A DNA stretch of 32,000 bases, taken from Candidatus Brevifilum fermentans. Its GTDB lineage: Bacteria; Chloroflexota; Anaerolineae; Anaerolineales; Anaerolineaceae. The first letter of the stretch is position 1; each line of letters opens with the position of its first letter. The position numbers and the translations under genes were made by a program. The notes beneath the pieces were generated by a model. The model did no database searches, was not told the origin of the DNA, and worked only from the letters and a program-made list of their open reading frames with translations. The DNA is taken from assembly GCF_900184705.1 (NCBI RefSeq), contig NZ_LT859958.1, positions 230,883 through 262,882 of the forward strand, in the 5' to 3' direction. Below are positions 3,223-28,934 of the stretch, piece by piece.

Positions 3223-4932
3223 TCACTCCATAGCCATCGGGTCGATATCGCGGGTGTGGGGCACCCAGGCCATAATGGTGGTACCATCGCCGGGCACAGT
3301 GGTGATATCCAGGTCTCCGCCAACATTGCGGGCGCGGGTTTGCATGTTTGAAATCCCATGTCCCAGCGTTAGCTGAACCGCTTCAGGATCAAAGCCGCGG
3401 CCATTATCGTGCACTTCCATCAGCACCCGATCAGATGTGGTCCAAACCGACACTTCCACCTTGCTGGCATTGGCGTGTTTGGCGACATTTGCCAGCGCTT
3501 CCTGGCAGATGTGGAACAGGGCAATCGCCTGCGGATCCGGCAAGTTTTCCAACCCTTCAGAGGGACCGCTGAGGGACGTCTCAACCAGAGAATTGACCTG
3601 AAATTCCTTCACCAACCGCCGCAATCCGTCCATCAGGTTCTCTTCATAAAGCTGGCGCGGCCGCATGTCCATGATGAAGGCGCGCAGGTCACGGATCGTG
3701 CTGTTGAGGTCTTCGATGGATTGGTCAATGCGGGTGCGGACCTGGGCGGGCTCTTCCTCGAGCAGCAGACGGGCATGTTCAAGCGTCAGCCCCACCGCGT
3801 AGATGGATTGGATAACACCATCGTGCAGGTCCATCCCAATGCGCTCACGCTCTTCGAGCACAGCCAACCGACGTCCCTGGATATTCAGGCGGACGTTTTC
3901 AATTGTGGTCCCCACCCAGGAGGCGATTGATGAGAGCAATTGTCGATCGATATCCTCCAACGGATCATCCCGCGTGAGGGCAATGCTGAGCACGCCCAGC
4001 ACTTCACTACGGCTGGTAAGTGGAAAACAAGCAATCTGCGCCAGCCCGGCATCCACCAGAGCCTGGTTCCTGAGGAAGGGGTCGTGCCGGTAGGGCAGAC
4101 CGACAATAGAGGGATTGCCGCTGCGGGCTGTACGCCCGATCAGGCTTTCATTCAAGGTGAAGCGTGCCTGGTTCCAGATGGAATGGACGGCATCACCCAG
4201 GTGGATCGCCCTCGAAAGGAAATTTTGACCTTCCTGGTCTAAAAAGATTTCACCGACTTCCACATCGAAATAATTAATCACCCGGTTGAGGGCTGTTTTA
4301 AGCAGATCGTCCAGCTCGGTGATCGACGCCAGGGCTGAAGCCAGGTTATTGAGCAGCGCCAAATCCTGGATGCGACGGGTGAGGGTGCGATCCCGTTCGT
4401 GCAGTTCATCGTAGGAGCGCGCGTTGGAGATTGCCACTGCGGCATAGGCAGCCAGGGTTTCGATCACGCGCTCATCATCCTGCGTGAAGCCGTCTCCGGT
4501 GATTTTATCGACCAGGTAGATTTGCCCCAGGTTGCGCCCGCCCTGGTAGATGGGTACGCCCAGCAGAGAAACAATCCTGGGCGCCTGTTCAGGGAATGCC
4601 ACCAGTCCAAGGTCGGTTTGAATATCCATCACACGCACCGGGTTGCTGGCGTCAGCAATCGCATTGATCAGGTTCATATTGATCGGCGGATGGGGTTGGG
4701 AAAAGACCTGTCCCTCATCGTTCCAGACCGAGATGAATTGCTCGAGATGCCCGCGCTCGGTACGGATGCCAATCGTCGCATAAGCAGCATTGGCTTGCTC
4801 ACAGGCGATGCGGGCGATGCGGTTCAACAGGGAATCAATCGAGATATCCTGCACCAGTTCCAGGCTCACCTGGTGTAAGGCTGCCAGCCTTTCTTCTAAC
4901 TGTTCACAGGAGAGATCTGTTTTGAGGACCAT
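3223..4932 (-). CDS. Soluble GAF-GAF sensor histidine kinase (HisKA_3 / NarX-DegS type)
   Basis: 569 aa with no hydrophobic TM segments. It has two GAF-like regions, the HisKA_3 H-box ERERIGMDLHDGVIQSIYAVGL, the N-box QEALANVAKHANA, and G-boxes HDNGRGF and GHGISNM. Confidence 0.85.
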   Translation of the reverse strand: MVLKTDLSCEQLEERLAALHQVSLELVQDISIDSLLNRIARIACEQANAAYATIGIRTERGHLEQFISVWNDEGQVFSQPHPPINMNLINAIADASNPVRVMDIQTDLGLVAFPEQAPRIVSLLGVPIYQGGRNLGQIYLVDKITGDGFTQDDERVIETLAAYAAVAISNARSYDELHERDRTLTRRIQDLALLNNLASALASITELDDLLKTALNRVINYFDVEVGEIFLDQEGQNFLSRAIHLGDAVHSIWNQARFTLNESLIGRTARSGNPSIVGLPYRHDPFLRNQALVDAGLAQIACFPLTSRSEVLGVLSIALTRDDPLEDIDRQLLSSIASWVGTTIENVRLNIQGRRLAVLEERERIGMDLHDGVIQSIYAVGLTLEHARLLLEEEPAQVRTRIDQSIEDLNSTIRDLRAFIMDMRPRQLYEENLMDGLRRLVKEFQVNSLVETSLSGPSEGLENLPDPQAIALFHICQEALANVAKHANASKVEVSVWTTSDRVLMEVHDNGRGFDPEAVQLTLGHGISNMQTRARNVGGDLDITTVPGDGTTIMAWVPHTRDIDPMAME

Positions 4933-5101
4933 AGCGGGCTCATTTTACCCCAAAAGGGGGGCTGTGTTCTGAAGGCAGGCGAGAATCTGATAGCTTTTGG
5001 GAGCCCTTTGCCAGTATATTCCATTAAGTGAATTTATTGTTGATCAATTACCACATCGGGTATGATCATTTCTGATACAACGAACCATGGAGGTCGGGCA
5101 G

Positions 5102-6403
5102 ATGACCGCAAACACGGCACATGAAGAAAAATTTTACAACCTGACACCTGCAGAACGCCTGGCACGCATAACCGATCAGTACCGGCTTTCAGCAGAGGAT
5201 GGGGCAGTATTGAGCGGAGAGCAGGGCCTTTCACTTGAATCTGCAAATCACATGATCGAAAATGTGATTGGCACCTTCAGCCTGCCGCTGGGAATAGCCC
5301 GCAATTTTCTGATCAACGGTCGCGAGGTTCCCGTGCCAATGGTCGTGGAGGAGCCTTCCATCGTCGCTGGCGCTTCTTTCATGGCGAAATTGGCGCGCGG
5401 CACGGGCGGTTTTTTTGCCCACGCAGATGCAGCCGAGATGATTGGGCAAATCCAGGTTTTGGACCTGGACGACCCATCCACTGCCCGACTGGCGCTGCTG
5501 GATAACAAAGAAATGCTGCTGGCAGAAGCTGCGCGGGTTGATCCCGTGCTGATTAAACTGGGCGGCGGACCGCGTGACCTGGAGGTGAGGTTGATCCAGG
5601 ATTCGCCCATCGGGGAATTTGTGGTGGTGCACCTGGTTTACGATGTGGTGGACGCCATGGGCGCTAACGCGGTCAACACAGCCGTGGAACGCCTGGCGCC
5701 GATTATTGAGCGCATCACCGGGGGCAGGGTCCTTCTACGCATTCTCAGCAACCTGGCTGATCGACGTTTAGCGCGCGCCCGGGTGACCATCAACACCGCA
5801 GACCTGACTTTTGGAGAGTTTAGCGGAGAAACCGTGCGCGATGGAATCGTCCAGGCTTGGGCGTTTGCTGCTGCCGACCCTTACCGTGCTGCAACACATA
5901 ACAAGGGCATTATGAATGGCATCGACTCGGTGCTGATTGCAACCGGGAACGATTGGCGCGCTGTGGAAGCCGGTGCGCACGCGTTTGCCGCCCGGGGTGG
6001 GCGCTATACCAGCCTTTCGACCTGGAGCCAGGATGAGACCGGAAACCTGGAGGGGTCACTTGAGATGCCGATGGCTGTTGGCACGGTGGGCGGCGCCACT
6101 CGCGTTCACCCAGCGGCTCAGGCCTGCCTGCGCTTAATGGGAATTAAATCGGCTGCCGACCTGGCTGAGGTGCTGGTTTCGGTCGGCTTGGCACAGAACT
6201 TGGCTGCTTTGCGGGCACTGGCGACAGAGGGCATCCAGCGTGGGCACATGACCCTGCATGCACGCCAGGTAGCGGTTGCCGCCGGCGCACAGCCCGAACA
6301 GATCGATGCCCTGGTCGAACGCTTGATTGCTGATAAAATCATCCGTATTGATCATGCGATAGCAATTTTGGAAGATTGGAATGGAGGAGACCGTGGACAA
6401 TAA
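5102..6403 (+). CDS. mvaA: Hydroxymethylglutaryl-CoA reductase, class II (NAD(P)H-dependent, 'degradative' type)
   Basis: Hallmark HMGR motifs are present: [33 protein letters not shown]. The size (about 430 aa) is typical of class II enzymes. The ORF-track start 5087 is ATGGAGGtcgggcagATG, so GGAGG lies 8 nt upstream of the ATG at 5102, which I chose. 5087 remains possible. Confidence 0.9.
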
Positions 6404-7484
6404 TGAGCATTTGTCAGCGCAGCAGGGAGGAGTGGCTCAAATCCCATCCCGCCCCGTAGGCATTGCCGGTTATGGGGTTTATATTCCGCGGTACCGCTTG
6501 CCCGGCACCGAGGTCTCGCGAATTTGGCTTGGCGAGCCCTCACCCGGCCCGGTTAAAGAGAAAGCCGTGGCGGGGCTCGACGAAGATGTGGTCACCATGT
6601 CGATTGAGGCCGCGCGCAATGCCCTGGCACGGGCGGCAATCGATCCCGAGGAACTGCGAGCGGTGTGGGTGGGCTCGGAATCTCATCCTTATGCGGTTAA
6701 ACCCTCTGGCACGATTGTGGCAGAGGCGATTGGTGCACCGGTTCACGTCCAGGCCGGGGATTTTGAGTTCGCTTGCAAGGCTGGAACAGAGGCGATGGTG
6801 GCTGCCATGGCCCTGGTTGGTTCGCACATGGCGGATTACGCTCTGGCGATCGGCATGGATACCGCCCAGGCTAAACCCGGTGACGCGCTGGAATACACCG
6901 CTGCATCGGGTGGAGCGGCTTATATCATCGGTCCGGCTGAAAACGCCCTGGCATCAATTGACGCTCATTATTCTTTCGTGACCGATACTCCGGATTTCTG
7001 GCGGCGGGAACACCAAATCTACCCCGAACATGGTCAGCGGTTTACCGGTGAGCCGGCTTATTTTAATCACATCATCTCAGCTTCGCGAACCTTGCTGGAT
7101 CAAATGGGTCTCACGGCAGCCGATTTCAAATATGCGGTCTTCCATCAACCCAACACAAAATTTCCCCAACGGGTCAGCAAACAGCTTGGCTTTACGCCGG
7201 AGCAGATCAAAGAGGGGCTGCTCTCACCGGTGATTGGAAACACCTACGCCGGGTCGGGTATGGTTGGGCTGACCGCCATACTGGATATTGCTGAGCCGGG
7301 CGATCGCATCCTGATGACGACCTACGGTTCGGGCGCCGGGTCGGACGCTTTTGTGATCACTGCCCTGGAAGCGCTATTAGAACGACGGAATGCTGCGCCC
7401 AGCACCCAGACTTATATTGCCCGCCGCACACAGATCGATTACGCTACCTATGCCCGCATGCGCGGGAAGATTGCCATGAGATGA
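6381..7484 (+). CDS. Hydroxymethylglutaryl-CoA synthase, short archaeal-type
   Basis: 367 aa. [14 protein letters not shown] is an N-terminus typical of the archaeal-type enzymes. Catalytic Glu/Cys/His contexts are retained ([24 protein letters not shown]) plus IGNTYAGS. It overlaps the HMGR 3' end by 23 nt. Confidence 0.85.
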
Positions 7485-7491
7485 GGGTGCC

Positions 7492-8664
7492 ATGGATAAA
7501 CGCCCATCAGATGTAATTGTGGCTGGCATCAGCCAGACACCGGTCGGTGAGTTTTGGGATCAATCGATCCGCCAGTTGGGAATCGAGGCGATCCTTGATG
7601 CCCGCAAGGATGCAGGCGGTTTGGTGCCCGAGGTGTTGTATGTCGGCAATCTGCTGGCAGTCTCTGCCTCTCGTCAGGCAAACCTGGGCACCCTGCTGGC
7701 TGAGAACGCTGGTCTGCGCGGGATAGAGGGGGTCACTGTGGAAGCAGCCGACGCTTCAGGCGGGGCAGCCTTGCGGCTGGCTTACCTGGCTGTGCGTTCA
7801 GGCGCTGTGAATACAGCCATGGCGCTGGGCGTGGAAAAATTCACCGATGTGATTGGCGGGGCATCGGAAGCCATGCTTGCCCACATGCTGGATGCTGATT
7901 ACGAAGCGGCTGAAGGGTTGACCCCGGTCGGACTGGCAGCGCTTTTATTTAAGCGTTACCTGCTTGAGTATGAGGTCGATCGCGATGCCCTGGCAGGCTT
8001 CCCGGAAACCGCCCATGACAATGCTTCGGTCAATCCAAATGCCATGTTCAAGTATCCGATGCGCCCGGGCGTTTACCAGCAAGCTATTGTTTCCGAGGAT
8101 TTTACCTTGTATGACGTGGCGCCCTATGCGGATGGGGCAGCGGCAGTCCTGCTCACCCGCGAGGATTGCCTGCCCGTGGGTTGGGACCAACCGCGGGTCA
8201 GGCTGATTGGATCCAGCCTGGTTACGGATACGCTTTCTATTCATGACCGCCATCATCCGCTGGAATGGGATGCAGCCCGTTTAAGCGTTGAACGCGCCTG
8301 CCGTGCAGCAGGCATCATGCCCCGGGATGTAGATTTTTTTGAAGTCCACGACGCCACCACCCTGCATACCGTTCTTTCTCTCGAGGCAGCGGGGTTTGCT
8401 TCGCAGGGACAGGGTTGGATGTTGGGCAAGCCTGAGACGATCGGACTGGGCGGTCAGATCCCGATAACCACTTTTGGTGGCTTAAAGGCACGCGGAAATC
8501 CGATCGGTGCAGCCGGGATTTACCAGGCGGTGGAAGCCACGCTGCAATTGCGCGGGCAGGCGGGTACAAACCAGGTGCAGGGTGCCAAACTGGGCTTGAT
8601 CCAGTGCCTGGGCGGGATGGCTTCTACAGCAGCAGTGCATGTTTTAGCAGCGGATAACGGTTAG
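7492..8664 (+). CDS. Thiolase-fold protein (SCP-x/archaeal thiolase-like) with substituted catalytic residues; not a canonical acetoacetyl-CoA thiolase
   Basis: 390 aa, starting 7 nt after HMGCS. The thiolase scaffold is recognisable throughout (GVEKFTD, LYDVAPYADGAAAVLL, TTFGGLKARG.PIGAAG, QLRGQAG, QCLGGMAS). However, the nucleophile context reads EAADASGG (Asp87, GAC 7750-7752), the HDCF loop reads HDAT (286-289), and GHP reads GNP (Asn336, AAT 8497-8499). Confidence 0.8.
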   Translation: MDKRPSDVIVAGISQTPVGEFWDQSIRQLGIEAILDARKDAGGLVPEVLYVGNLLAVSASRQANLGTLLAENAGLRGIEGVTVEAADASGGAALRLAYLAVRSGAVNTAMALGVEKFTDVIGGASEAMLAHMLDADYEAAEGLTPVGLAALLFKRYLLEYEVDRDALAGFPETAHDNASVNPNAMFKYPMRPGVYQQAIVSEDFTLYDVAPYADGAAAVLLTREDCLPVGWDQPRVRLIGSSLVTDTLSIHDRHHPLEWDAARLSVERACRAAGIMPRDVDFFEVHDATTLHTVLSLEAAGFASQGQGWMLGKPETIGLGGQIPITTFGGLKARGNPIGAAGIYQAVEATLQLRGQAGTNQVQGAKLGLIQCLGGMASTAAVHVLAADNG

Positions 8665-8809
8665 TCGGTAGTTGGATGGCAGAAGGAAGACAGGTTTTCG
8701 ATCGATGGGAGTCTTCCTGTAAGAATTCACCTTCAGACTTTAAATCCCTGATCTTATTTCAATGATACAATCTACAAACGATGATGACCACGATTCAGGA
8801 GGACATTCC

Positions 8810-9820
8810 ATGAAGGTTTTGATCACTGGCGGGGCAGGCTACATCGGCAGCACAATTTGTTCGGCGCTGCTGGATCACGGGCATACCCCGGTTATCCTCG
8901 ATTCCCTGGTCACCGGTCAGCTCGCTTTCACCCGTGGACGCATCTTCTACCATGGCGACATCGCTGACCAGGACCTGGTGCGGCAGGTTTTTAAGGACCA
9001 TCCAGACATCACTGCAACGATCCACTGTGCCGCCCTGATCGTGGTGCCTGAATCTGTGTCAAAACCCTACGAGTATTACCAGGAAAACGTGGTCAAGTCG
9101 ATGGATTTCTTTTTCCAGTTAGCGACTCTGGGTTACCCGCGGGTGGTGTTCAGCTCATCAGCAGCAATTTATGATGTAGTGCCCGGTTTCATGGTCACGG
9201 AGTCGTCTCCGCTTAATCCCATTAGCCCTTATTCGCGCACCAAGTACATGATGGAGATGATCCTCAAAGATTTTTGCCACGCCTACGGGCTGAAGGGTAT
9301 TGCCCTGCGTTATTTCAACCCGATTGGTGCAGACCCGCACATGCGCACGGGTCTGCACATCAAAGAGCCCAGTCACATCCTCGGGCGGTTGGTGGCAGTG
9401 GCGCGGGGAGAGGCACCGGAGTTCCAAATCACAGGCACGGACTGGCCCACCCGCGATGGCACTGGCATCCGCGATTATATCCACGTGTGGAACCTGGCTC
9501 TGGCGCACATCAAGGCGGTTGAACGTTTTGATGCGGTTATTGAGGCGGATGCGAGCCTCGAGAATCCCTATGCGGTGATCAACCTGGGAACCGGTCGGGG
9601 CGTTACTGTGCGCGAGATGGTGAAGGCTTTTGAGCATGTTCTCGGCCGCGAAATTCCCAAGGTGGAAATGCCGCCGCGTCCCGGCGATGTGGCCGGCTCC
9701 TATGCCAACGCGGATAAAGCCCTGTCACTGCTGGGCTGGTCGGCTGAACAGTCGATCGAAGCAGGGATAGCCGACGCGCTTAAATGGGGTGAAATACGCG
9801 ACCAGATTTTGGGGTGGTGA
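8810..9820 (+). CDS. galE: UDP-glucose 4-epimerase
   Basis: MKVLITGGAGYIGS Rossmann start, the SxnYxxxK catalytic context (SPYSRTKYMME), and the GalE-like body (LRYFNPIGA, GTGIRDYIHV, NLGTG.G.TV). AGGAGG lies 6 nt upstream of the ATG at 8810. The ORF-track start 8762 adds 16 non-homologous residues. Confidence 0.9.
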   Translation: MKVLITGGAGYIGSTICSALLDHGHTPVILDSLVTGQLAFTRGRIFYHGDIADQDLVRQVFKDHPDITATIHCAALIVVPESVSKPYEYYQENVVKSMDFFFQLATLGYPRVVFSSSAAIYDVVPGFMVTESSPLNPISPYSRTKYMMEMILKDFCHAYGLKGIALRYFNPIGADPHMRTGLHIKEPSHILGRLVAVARGEAPEFQITGTDWPTRDGTGIRDYIHVWNLALAHIKAVERFDAVIEADASLENPYAVINLGTGRGVTVREMVKAFEHVLGREIPKVEMPPRPGDVAGSYANADKALSLLGWSAEQSIEAGIADALKWGEIRDQILGW

Positions 9821-27721: not shown

Positions 27722-28426
27722 TCATTGCCTCCGGTGTCCAGAACTGCGTTCAGACCAATCCCGAGAGACATGGGCGATCAAAACCTGGGTGGGGAAATCA
27801 TGGGATTGTGTATCGACCAGGTAACCCGGCGACCAGAAGTCGCCGATGTTTTCATCGGTTTGCAGAGCGGGGAAAGCTTCGAAGATCCGTTTTGACGTCC
27901 ACTGCCTGACAGCAGCCAGCGTTTTCAGGGTCAGGCATTCGGGAAAATCCAGCAGGGTCCATTTAAAATAATCGGGTCGAATAGAAATCAGATCCAGTTC
28001 CCAGCCATAAATTTGGCTCAATTCTGGCATCCAAGTTCGCAATTCTTGTGCCAGCTCACCTAAAAGATAGTGCTCCTTCATGCGTGGGACCAGGTAGAAG
28101 GAGGTGTCATAAACCGTTTCTGCCAGGGCAGCCAGATCGTCATTTGAGGCAGGTTGAAAATCGGGTTGCTGGTCGCCAGGTGACTGACTGCTGGATTCAG
28201 CAACGCCTGGATGACGGGCTGAATACAAGTCATCGATTTCTTCCGCGGATTGGTCCTTGATCCCCGCTTGAAGAATGCTAGCCAGGTCCTCTTCGGCTGG
28301 TGATTTGGGTTCCAACGGCTGCCAGGAGCGGCTTGCTGAAAGATCAGCATGAGGAAGCTTCACTTTGTGATCGGAAAGCCCTTGATCTTGTTTTTCTGCT
28401 GATTTTTTTGGCTTTGCAGACACCAT
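27722..28426 (-). CDS. Protein with disordered acidic N-terminal region and a degenerate IS200-like Y1 transposase (TnpA/RAYT-fold) domain lacking HUH and catalytic Tyr
   Basis: The C-terminal ~125 aa follow the Y1_Tnp pattern (FYLVPRMKEHYLLGELAQEL......GWELDLISIRPDYFKWTLL.....TLKTLAAVRQWTSKRIFEAFPAL.....FWSPGYLVDT). I chose the ATG at 28426 (AAGGAtgaaATG). The ORF-track start at 28462 is a TTG. Confidence 0.6.
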   Translation of the reverse strand: MVSAKPKKSAEKQDQGLSDHKVKLPHADLSASRSWQPLEPKSPAEEDLASILQAGIKDQSAEEIDDLYSARHPGVAESSSQSPGDQQPDFQPASNDDLAALAETVYDTSFYLVPRMKEHYLLGELAQELRTWMPELSQIYGWELDLISIRPDYFKWTLLDFPECLTLKTLAAVRQWTSKRIFEAFPALQTDENIGDFWSPGYLVDTQSHDFPTQVLIAHVSRDWSERSSGHRRQ

Positions 28427-28934
28427 TTCATCCTTATTGTGCTGGGCGGTATTCCATTCCAAATGCCATCGATTTGATGTCGATTTCTGTTACCTTGCAA
28501 GGATTGTTCCAGCCTCTGGTGGGCGTTTCCTTTTATCTCCGTGCTTGTTCCCGCAACCTTGTTTTACCAGCTTCAAGCTACAATATTTGCTGAGTTGAGG
28601 ACGTTTTTAATACGATTGAACCATTCCAGTGCAATCATTATACTGGAAGGTTGCAATGCTCTGCACGGTCATTAAGCGTCTTTTTGATCAGCTCAATAAG
28701 CTAAGATCGTATCCATTAACAACCGTTTTGAGTTTGGAATGATGTTATTGTATCAACAAATTTGCAAACATTTTACTCTTATGGATTAACAAAGTATCAT
28801 TATTTATTAAGAAAACCACGTCATACGCTAGATCGTTATGCGCGGAAAGATTAAGCGCACATCGGCAAAATGGTACAACTTACGGCAAACCATTTCGATT
28901 TCTATTGAATCAAATACCCATAAAGGAGGTGAAA

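Follow-up and report, generated by a model that had tools for sequence, protein, structure and literature searches.

A thiolase-fold protein lacking the nucleophilic cysteine is encoded beside an intact archaeal-type HMG-CoA synthase in the mevalonate operon of Candidatus Brevifilum fermentans

The closest described system to the locus examined here is the archaeal thiolase/HMGCS/DUF35 complex, in which a thiolase and 3-hydroxy-3-methylglutaryl-CoA (HMG-CoA) synthase (HMGCS) share a CoA-binding chamber (PMC11522927; PMC12960953) and which is defined by in situ channelling of acetoacetyl-CoA. HMGCS of the archaeal type is 50-100 residues shorter than stand-alone HMGCS (PMC11522927), and archaeal thiolase and DUF35 partners can need co-expression for solubility (bioRxiv 10.1101/2024.07.05.601840). 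In a 32,000-nucleotide stretch of the Candidatus Brevifilum fermentans genome (NZ_LT859958.1, positions 230,883 to 262,882 of the forward strand, hereafter the window) the same two folds are encoded side by side, within a mevalonate operon that also contains HMG-CoA reductase (HMGR). The thiolase-like member, a 390-residue protein encoded at window positions 7492-8664, carries Asp at the position of the nucleophilic Cys, and this protein is the subject of the present analysis.

Inactive thiolase-superfamily partners include KS-CLF and the KS0/KS-DC decarboxylases of HMGS beta-branching cassettes, which likewise place a Cys-less condensing-enzyme homologue beside an active partner or HMGS; these, however, keep the decarboxylation His-His pair and have substrates bound to acyl carrier protein, whereas the His positions in the present family are not conserved. 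KS0 has been defined in PMC11522927. Pseudo-subunits (PhlA/MucA and the HMGS-DUF35 of P. fluorescens) are also retained in PhlABC/MucABC and in the P. fluorescens ACAT/HMGS-DUF35 complex (PMC12960953), where the same tripartite architecture is kept despite one thiolase-superfamily subunit being without catalytic residues. In those systems it is the HMGS-like subunit that is dead, the Cys of the ACAT-like subunit being retained; here the reverse is found, with HMGS intact and the ACAT-like protein Cys-less, and the operon, HMGR included, still belongs to primary mevalonate metabolism. The steroid side-chain aldolases Ltp2 and Sal (PDB 6OK1, 9MYR; PMC12329534) similarly have an SCP-x fold without the nucleophilic Cys, Sal carrying Gly at the former nucleophile position, and have DUF35 partners, but their conserved Tyr lies in a Y-D-[HC]-[FY] motif that reads H-D-A-T here, and their pathway context is another one.

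The operon genes and the codons under discussion are listed below, in window coordinates.

5087-6403, plus strand: class II HMG-CoA reductase, at the head of the operon; Pfam PF00368, E = 1.6e-108; TIGR00532, 415 bits (cut-off 260)
6381-7484, plus strand: archaeal-type (short) HMGCS; NCBIfam NF003274, 531 bits (cut-off 244); tetrad Glu100/Cys132/His255/Asn287 intact
7492-8664, plus strand: Cys-less thiolase-fold protein (putative pseudo-thiolase), 390 aa; Pfam Thiolase_C_1 and Thiolase_N, AlphaFold2 model and Foldseek
7750-7752, plus strand: codon GAC, Asp87, at the nucleophilic-Cys position; alignment to 7yvy_A and 6esq_A
8347-8358, plus strand: His286-Asp287-Ala288-Thr289 of the HDxF loop, CACGACGCCACC; aligned to HDAF (7yvy) and HDCF (6esq)
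8497-8499, plus strand: codon AAT, Asn336, at the position of the GHP His; from the alignment, with H/N/F/Y within the clade
8605-8607, plus strand: codon TGC, Cys372, a non-conserved residue of the QxLGG loop (CxG-loop region); residue counts in homologues

HMGR, HMGCS and the thiolase-fold open reading frame (ORF) are three closely packed plus-strand genes, the HMGCS start overlapping the end of HMGR by 23 nt (6381-6403) and the thiolase-fold ORF starting 7 nt past the HMGCS stop codon. An end-to-end alignment was obtained with 6esq_I, which is the HMGCS in the M. thermolithotrophicus complex (E = 4e-120), and the HMGCS of the window lacks none of the catalytic residues. With its annotated start it is longer than 6esq_I by about 24 residues at the N-terminus, and start calls differ for identical sequence (367 aa in locus L001, 347 aa in L003); as gene callers disagree, the true start is uncertain.

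Membership of the archaeal/SCP-x-type thiolase fold was supported by several methods. On the 390-residue protein, Pfam Thiolase_C_1 (PF22691) matched with 133.9 bits (cut-off 28, E = 4.4e-39) and Thiolase_N (PF00108) with 49.2 bits (cut-off 26.4, E = 6e-13). The AlphaFold2 model (pLDDT 90, pTM 0.93) was superposed by Foldseek on 6esq_A, the thiolase of the archaeal complex, and on 6et9_C with TM scores of 0.92-0.93, and on 7yvy with 0.87-0.93. An earlier reading made from the window's letters without database searches (the sequence-only reading) had described a full-length thiolase-fold protein, and in this it was borne out. The NCBIfam thiolase models, however, all scored under their curated cut-offs, the best being NF004720 (331 bits versus 420), with AcCoTHIOL_METTL (NF053570) at 277 bits versus 600; of the attributes of a competent thiolase, the nucleophilic Cys, the GHP His and a curated NCBIfam score are all wanting. 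Family members carry the database label 'acetyl-CoA C-acetyltransferase', and the annotation of this Cys-less protein as an acetyl-CoA acetyltransferase is most likely wrong.

The register of the catalytic positions was set by HMMER alignments to two solved thiolases, 7yvy_A of Pyrococcus furiosus (E = 8e-84) and 6esq_A, the Methanothermococcus complex thiolase (E = 4e-51). The query motif VEAADASGG aligned with IEAACASGG of 7yvy_A and VEAACASGS of 6esq_A; no Cys was placed at the nucleophile position, so the register stands and the change of Cys to Asp at residue 87 is real. KARGNPIGAAG aligned with KARGHPVGATG, confirming the change of His to Asn at residue 336, and FFEVHDATT aligned with FFEVHDAFT (7yvy) and EVHDCFA (6esq). 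The coordinates of the ORF and the GAC, AAT and HDAT codons quoted in the sequence-only reading were exact, but its statement that all three catalytic positions are substituted went too far, two of the three losses being real. In the HDxF loop the replacement of Phe289 by Thr is genuine, whereas the Ala does not mark a lost catalytic Cys, given that the nearest Cys-bearing relatives read HDAF, and His286 is kept. The His of this loop is essential in archaeal ACAT, in which H284A is inactive (PMC12960953). His286 was found in the query and in the whole Brevefilum clade, and is replaced in most other Cys-less orthologues. In the established thiolase mechanism the Cys is the acyl acceptor, and because of this requirement canonical thiolase activity is excluded; with no Cys at position 87, the Cys-dependent ping-pong reaction is impossible for this protein, as had been concluded from the sequence alone, and the channelling that defines the archaeal complex is likewise impossible in its canonical form. 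The AlphaFold2 model has a strand at residues 79-83 and a helix at 89-102, which places Asp87, two residues ahead of the helix, at the N-terminus of what was the nucleophile helix.

An identical protein was present in 23 database members (P0001), and a 94%-identical protein from a Brevefilum metagenome-assembled genome has the same residues at the catalytic positions; the substitutions are not assembly errors. Among the 120 closest homologues (68-100% identity, with names including Brevefilum and Anaerolineaceae), Asp87 and the HDAT motif were invariant in 121 of 121 sequences. Residue 336 was polymorphic in the same set (91 His, 23 Asn, 4 Phe, 3 Tyr); residue 372 was also variable (58 Ser, 44 Cys, 18 Asn). 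Invariance extends to about 24% of positions in these 121 sequences, so that of Asp87 taken alone is modest evidence.

Wider sampling was obtained by scanning one genome per species with a 6-sequence alignment, which returned 80 Anaerolineae loci, including those of Anaerolinea thermophila, Leptolinea tardivitalis, Longilinea, Levilinea and Mesolinea. The gene order HMGR-HMGCS-thiolase-like was kept in essentially all of them. Most loci have Gly at position 87, those of the Brevefilum and Mesolinea-type clades have Asp and a few have Glu, and Cys was found in none of the 80, which counters the possibility that orthologues uniformly carry Cys and His and that the substitutions are assembly or strain-specific errors. 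Position 286 may be His, Tyr, Phe, Ser, Cys, Ala, Asp, Trp or Thr, and position 336 is mostly Asn, the predominant residue in the Gly type, with His, Tyr, Phe, Leu, Arg and Glu also found. The HMGCS tetrad Glu100/Cys132/His255/Asn287, by comparison, was invariant in 75 of 75 loci. In one Gly-type locus (L004, 9553-10001) an unexplained gap of about 450 nt separates HMGCS from the thiolase-like gene, compared with 7 nt in the window.

Selection on the thiolase-like gene was assessed by pairwise Nei-Gojobori estimates for 12 pairs, which gave dN/dS values of 0.04-0.14, a range indistinguishable from those of HMGR, HMGCS and DUF35 in the same loci. Values as low as those of the neighbouring genes show a functional protein and no decay. 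The gene therefore combines catalytic residues that are lost and variable across orthologues with purifying selection, as in a pseudoenzyme. The view that the operon as a whole is not decaying is thus upheld, by purifying selection and by the age and conservation of the substitution, and the Glu/Cys/His contexts of HMGCS and the HMGR motifs were as the sequence-only reading had described them.

Loss of the nucleophile was not confined to Anaerolineae. Among the nearest 50%-identity cluster representatives covering the site (n = 134), 62 had Cys and 72 did not, the latter having Gly (24), Asp (13), Glu (10), Ser (9), Ala (5), Asn (3), Thr (2), Gln (2), Pro (2), Val (1) or Tyr (1). Another bacterial lineage (L099) has the order HMGR-HMGCS-thiolase(Asp)-DUF35. 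A Bathyarchaeia-type membrane-lipid cluster, GGR - PcrB/GGGPS - Fe-ADH/G1PDH - HMGCS - thiolase - DUF35 - polyprenyl synthase, has Cys in the thiolase slot of one syntenic archaeal locus (L101) and Asp in that of two others (L011, L103), and a Bathyarchaeota HMGCS-thiolase-DUF35 trio (L102) has Ser in the nucleophile slot; P0134 and its relatives also carry Bathyarchaeota names. HMGCS is intact in all five loci (L011, L099, L101, L102, L103). On these alignments and gene orders, nucleophile loss in HMGCS-linked thiolases is recurrent in both domains. In L099 the HMGR upstream of the intact HMGCS-thiolase(Asp)-DUF35 was called as two ORFs (3639-4930; 200 and 208 aa), which may reflect a frameshift or a pseudogene. 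Judged by its sequence, ST0096 of Sulfolobus tokodaii (PDB 4YZO) is an already-crystallised member of the Cys-less group: it has the archaeal-type fold (Foldseek TM 0.82-0.92 to the query model), H-D-M-A and G-H-P motifs, and Ser at the nucleophile position (N-T-S-G-S-G-G versus A-A-D-A-S-G-G in the query), although it differs in having Ser rather than Asp and is only 24-26% identical. ST0096 is not known to have a function assigned or to be linked to HMGCS.

Of the Cys-bearing relatives, those nearest to the query (P0124 family, 44% identity) likewise belong to Anaerolineae, with source names that include Anaerolineaceae bacterium, Anaerolinea sp. and Longilinea arvoryzae. This family keeps Cys87, HDAF, GHP and Asn372 in 120 of 120 sequences at a divergence similar to that of the Asp clade, is unlinked to HMGCS and has a conserved neighbourhood of its own, with PGA_cap, AlkZ-like and amylase genes. 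Positions fixed in this paralogue and free in the operon-linked group include Cys87, His286, Phe289, Asn372, Trp72, Met117, Ser120, Pro121 and Gly57, among others. Identity reaches 95% or more in both groups at 74 positions, of which many are charged or polar. By assembly-prefix matching, the paralogue records JAXGYU01 and JAUYTD01 were not among the operon-carrying loci. The lone low-confidence stretch of the AlphaFold2 model, residues ~121-150 (window 7852-7941, block pLDDT 58-76), lies in the loop domain, and residues 117, 120, 121, 124, 131 and 132, in or near it, are fixed in the Cys-bearing paralogue and free in the operon-linked group.

A further difference from the archaeal complex concerns DUF35. 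No DUF35 gene (zf-ChsH2/OB_ChsH2_C) was found in the operon or elsewhere in the 32-kb window, either with phmmer and three DUF35 queries or in Pfam scans of 28 ORFs, although most orthologous Anaerolineae operons do encode one, directly downstream of the thiolase-like gene in most Gly-type orthologues. The Brevefilum and Mesolinea-type Asp clades, together with one Glu sequence, formed one group in a neighbour-joining (NJ) tree (bootstrap 96/100), and both Asp clades share the derived residues Gly80, Asp87, Leu133, Leu291 and His292. A Thr or Ser stands at position 289 in 34 of 35 Anaerolineae Asp sequences. In two loci (L066, L070) Asp arose separately and DUF35 was retained. In the NJ tree, whose deep branches have poor support, the Asp clade is nested among Gly lineages, and together with the codon series TGY, GGY, GAY this suggests a path from Cys through Gly to Asp. 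As the Cys-less Gly-type orthologues adjoin DUF35, the pseudo-thiolase state would have come first and DUF35 would have been lost later, in the Asp subclade. The proposal of the sequence-only reading that the protein replaces a missing DUF35 fails on the same ground, since Cys-less orthologues co-occur with DUF35, and was ruled out.

The reading that we favour, as somewhat more probable than all others together, is that the protein is a pseudo-thiolase kept as the non-catalytic partner of a co-translated, short (C-terminally truncated) HMGCS of the archaeal type. Catalytic side chains that drift, with a fold, an operon position and selection that are kept and a partner that is intact, point to a pseudoenzyme with a structural role; a non-catalytic HMGCS partner had been suggested from the sequence, and the variation of the catalytic side chains against the conservation of the protein, its operon position and the HMGCS tetrad gives that suggestion strong comparative support. 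As part of this reading it is proposed that the Cys was lost in the ancestor of the operon-linked Anaerolineae lineage. The observation is well supported and the mechanism is put forward as a proposal. Judging by gene order and homology, the pseudo-thiolase would still form the thiolase side of a thiolase/HMGCS assembly, and may supply the shared CoA-binding chamber and a stability that a lone short HMGCS would lack. It would neither make nor cleave acetoacetyl-CoA, which would come from a separate enzyme, most likely the unlinked Cys/His/His paralogue of Anaerolineae, or by another route. A possible selective reason is that, with the nucleophile gone, incoming acetoacetyl-CoA would escape the thermodynamically favoured thiolysis at the shared site. 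The residues that replace the Cys (Gly, Asp, Glu, Ser, Ala, Asn, Thr, Gln) are mostly good helix N-cap residues, and such replacements at the start of a helix fit a structural fill-in; Asp87 is probably a structurally favourable substitute at the N-terminus of the old nucleophile helix, and may belong to a small polar network with Thr289 and His292, both of which changed along with it.

Several points weigh against this interpretation. Complex formation is something we infer from gene order and homology only, and DUF35, the scaffold mediating the archaeal complex, was absent near the Asp/Glu subclade in 29 of 29 loci within the fetched flanks. No obvious compensating change was seen in the HMGCS of the DUF35-less clade, F315Y being the sole fixed difference along with one gap column. 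The Cys-bearing paralogue is known from the class, and its presence in this particular genome would have to be assumed. The NJ tree is rough, with 38% bootstrap for the monophyly of all operon-linked Anaerolineae sequences. In addition, Asp87 and HDAT do not vary among the 121 sequences, 75% of which keep His336, and the combination of Asp with Ser/Thr289 recurs independently in Bathyarchaeia, which could signal a new active site instead.

Such a new active site, built in the Asp subclade from Asp87, His286, Thr289 and His292, is the substance of an alternative that we regard as unlikely. The Asp would serve either as acyl acceptor, through an acetyl-aspartyl anhydride intermediate as in CoA-transferases, or as general base for a non-covalent condensation or a malonyl-CoA decarboxylation feeding HMGCS. 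Cys-less KS decarboxylases with an HMGS partner are known from polyketide beta-branching. The derived residues shared by the Asp clades are in keeping with it, as is the pairing of Asp with Ser/Thr289 in 34/35 Anaerolineae and 19/28 Bathyarchaeial Asp sequences, the latter keeping both His and occupying the same slot of the lipid/mevalonate cluster as the Cys form of a relative. The invariance of Asp87 and H-D-A-T down to 68% identity would also be expected, but is weakened by the 24% of positions that are equally invariant, and residue 336 may be His, Asn, Phe, Tyr or Leu inside the clade, while residue 286 is Ala or Ser in the sister clade, the Mesolinea-type Asp sequences. Moreover, in the NJ tree the Asp clade is nested among Gly lineages that are incapable of such catalysis, and a second acyl-CoA site is not known for this fold. 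The specific claim that the Asp forms, in the Brevefilum/Mesolinea clade and independently in Bathyarchaeia, are condensing enzymes with carboxylate in place of thiol that supply acetoacetyl-CoA to HMGCS appears quite improbable; if true, it would represent an unprecedented carboxylate-based thiolase.

It is also conceivable, though doubtful, that the Cys-less protein pairs with the unlinked active paralogue in the manner of KS-CLF and docks it onto HMGCS, so that channelling would proceed through one active subunit. Thiolases are obligate dimers and active/inactive heterodimers are common in the superfamily, and the presence in the same class of a 44%-identical Cys/His/His paralogue sharing the 74 positions noted above would suit such a pairing; the paralogue, however, never adjoins the operon, has its conserved neighbourhood elsewhere, and its co-occurrence with the operon in one genome would have to be assumed for Brevefilum. 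A retro-aldolase or aldolase of the Ltp2/Sal type acting on 3-hydroxyacyl-CoA is very improbable. Ltp2 and Sal do combine the SCP-x fold, Gly for the nucleophilic Cys and a DUF35 partner, Foldseek matched 6ok1 and 9myr with TM scores of 0.82-0.84, and some Gly-type orthologues read Y-D-A-[FY]. Change of the catalytic Tyr to Phe abolishes Sal activity (PMC12329534), and this Tyr is His in the query and Tyr, Phe, His, Cys, Ser, Asp or Trp in orthologues; the third motif position is Ala, neither His nor Cys, 6ok1 is marginally similar in sequence (E = 2.8e-7), and the context is a mevalonate operon and not steroid catabolism. As the defining Tyr is missing from the query and is not conserved in orthologues, the aldolase identity, which had been raised in the sequence-only reading, was rejected. 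Finally, the database label of the family would suit an ordinary acetoacetyl-CoA thiolase whose odd residues arose from an error in sequencing or alignment, or a pseudogene in decay, yet hardly any probability attaches to this. It was refuted by a register fixed both by the alignment to 7yvy_A and by the fold, by the same residues in hundreds of independent assemblies, by dN/dS of about 0.1, and by a best NCBIfam score below its cut-off.

No other thiolase is encoded elsewhere in the 32-kb window. The next gene 3' of the thiolase-like gene encodes a GalE-like NAD-dependent epimerase (8762-9820, plus strand); throughout the Brevefilum clade (L001, L012-L014, L016, L017, L021, L024, L027) this epimerase directly follows the thiolase-like gene, in the place occupied by DUF35 in other Anaerolineae. 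Directly upstream of HMGR, and divergent from it, lies a GAF-GAF-HisKA_3/HATPase sensor kinase gene (3223-4932, minus strand). The same divergent arrangement was seen in 30 of the 67 related Anaerolineae loci whose upstream sequence was long enough, among them a lineage at 48% identity (L007), and the kinase may serve specifically to regulate the mevalonate genes. The minus strand also has, at 27722-28462, an ORF whose product contains an IS200-like Y1 transposase domain (Pfam E = 3e-7).

No description of the Cys-less HMGCS-linked thiolase of Anaerolineae was found in the searchable literature. PMC12960953 (Nature Communications 2026) makes no mention of Cys-less ACAT subunits or of Chloroflexi, no paper was found for PDB 7YVY, and searches for Anaerolineae/Chloroflexi mevalonate thiolases or thiolase pseudoenzymes returned nothing relevant. 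Anaerolineae abound in digesters and sediments. Owing to the routine label, metabolic models of this class and of Bathyarchaeia assign to the mevalonate operon a thiolase that it very probably lacks, and the real source of acetoacetyl-CoA is to be sought outside the operon. The thiolase/HMGCS/DUF35 complex has been understood as a device for channelling an unfavourable thiolase product; that a bacterial class and several archaeal lineages keep a nucleophile-less subunit would imply a second, non-catalytic role for it, as CoA chamber, in stability or in gating. As the mirror image of PhlABC/MucABC, the pseudo-thiolase would make it evident that a scaffold can arise from either subunit of this architecture.

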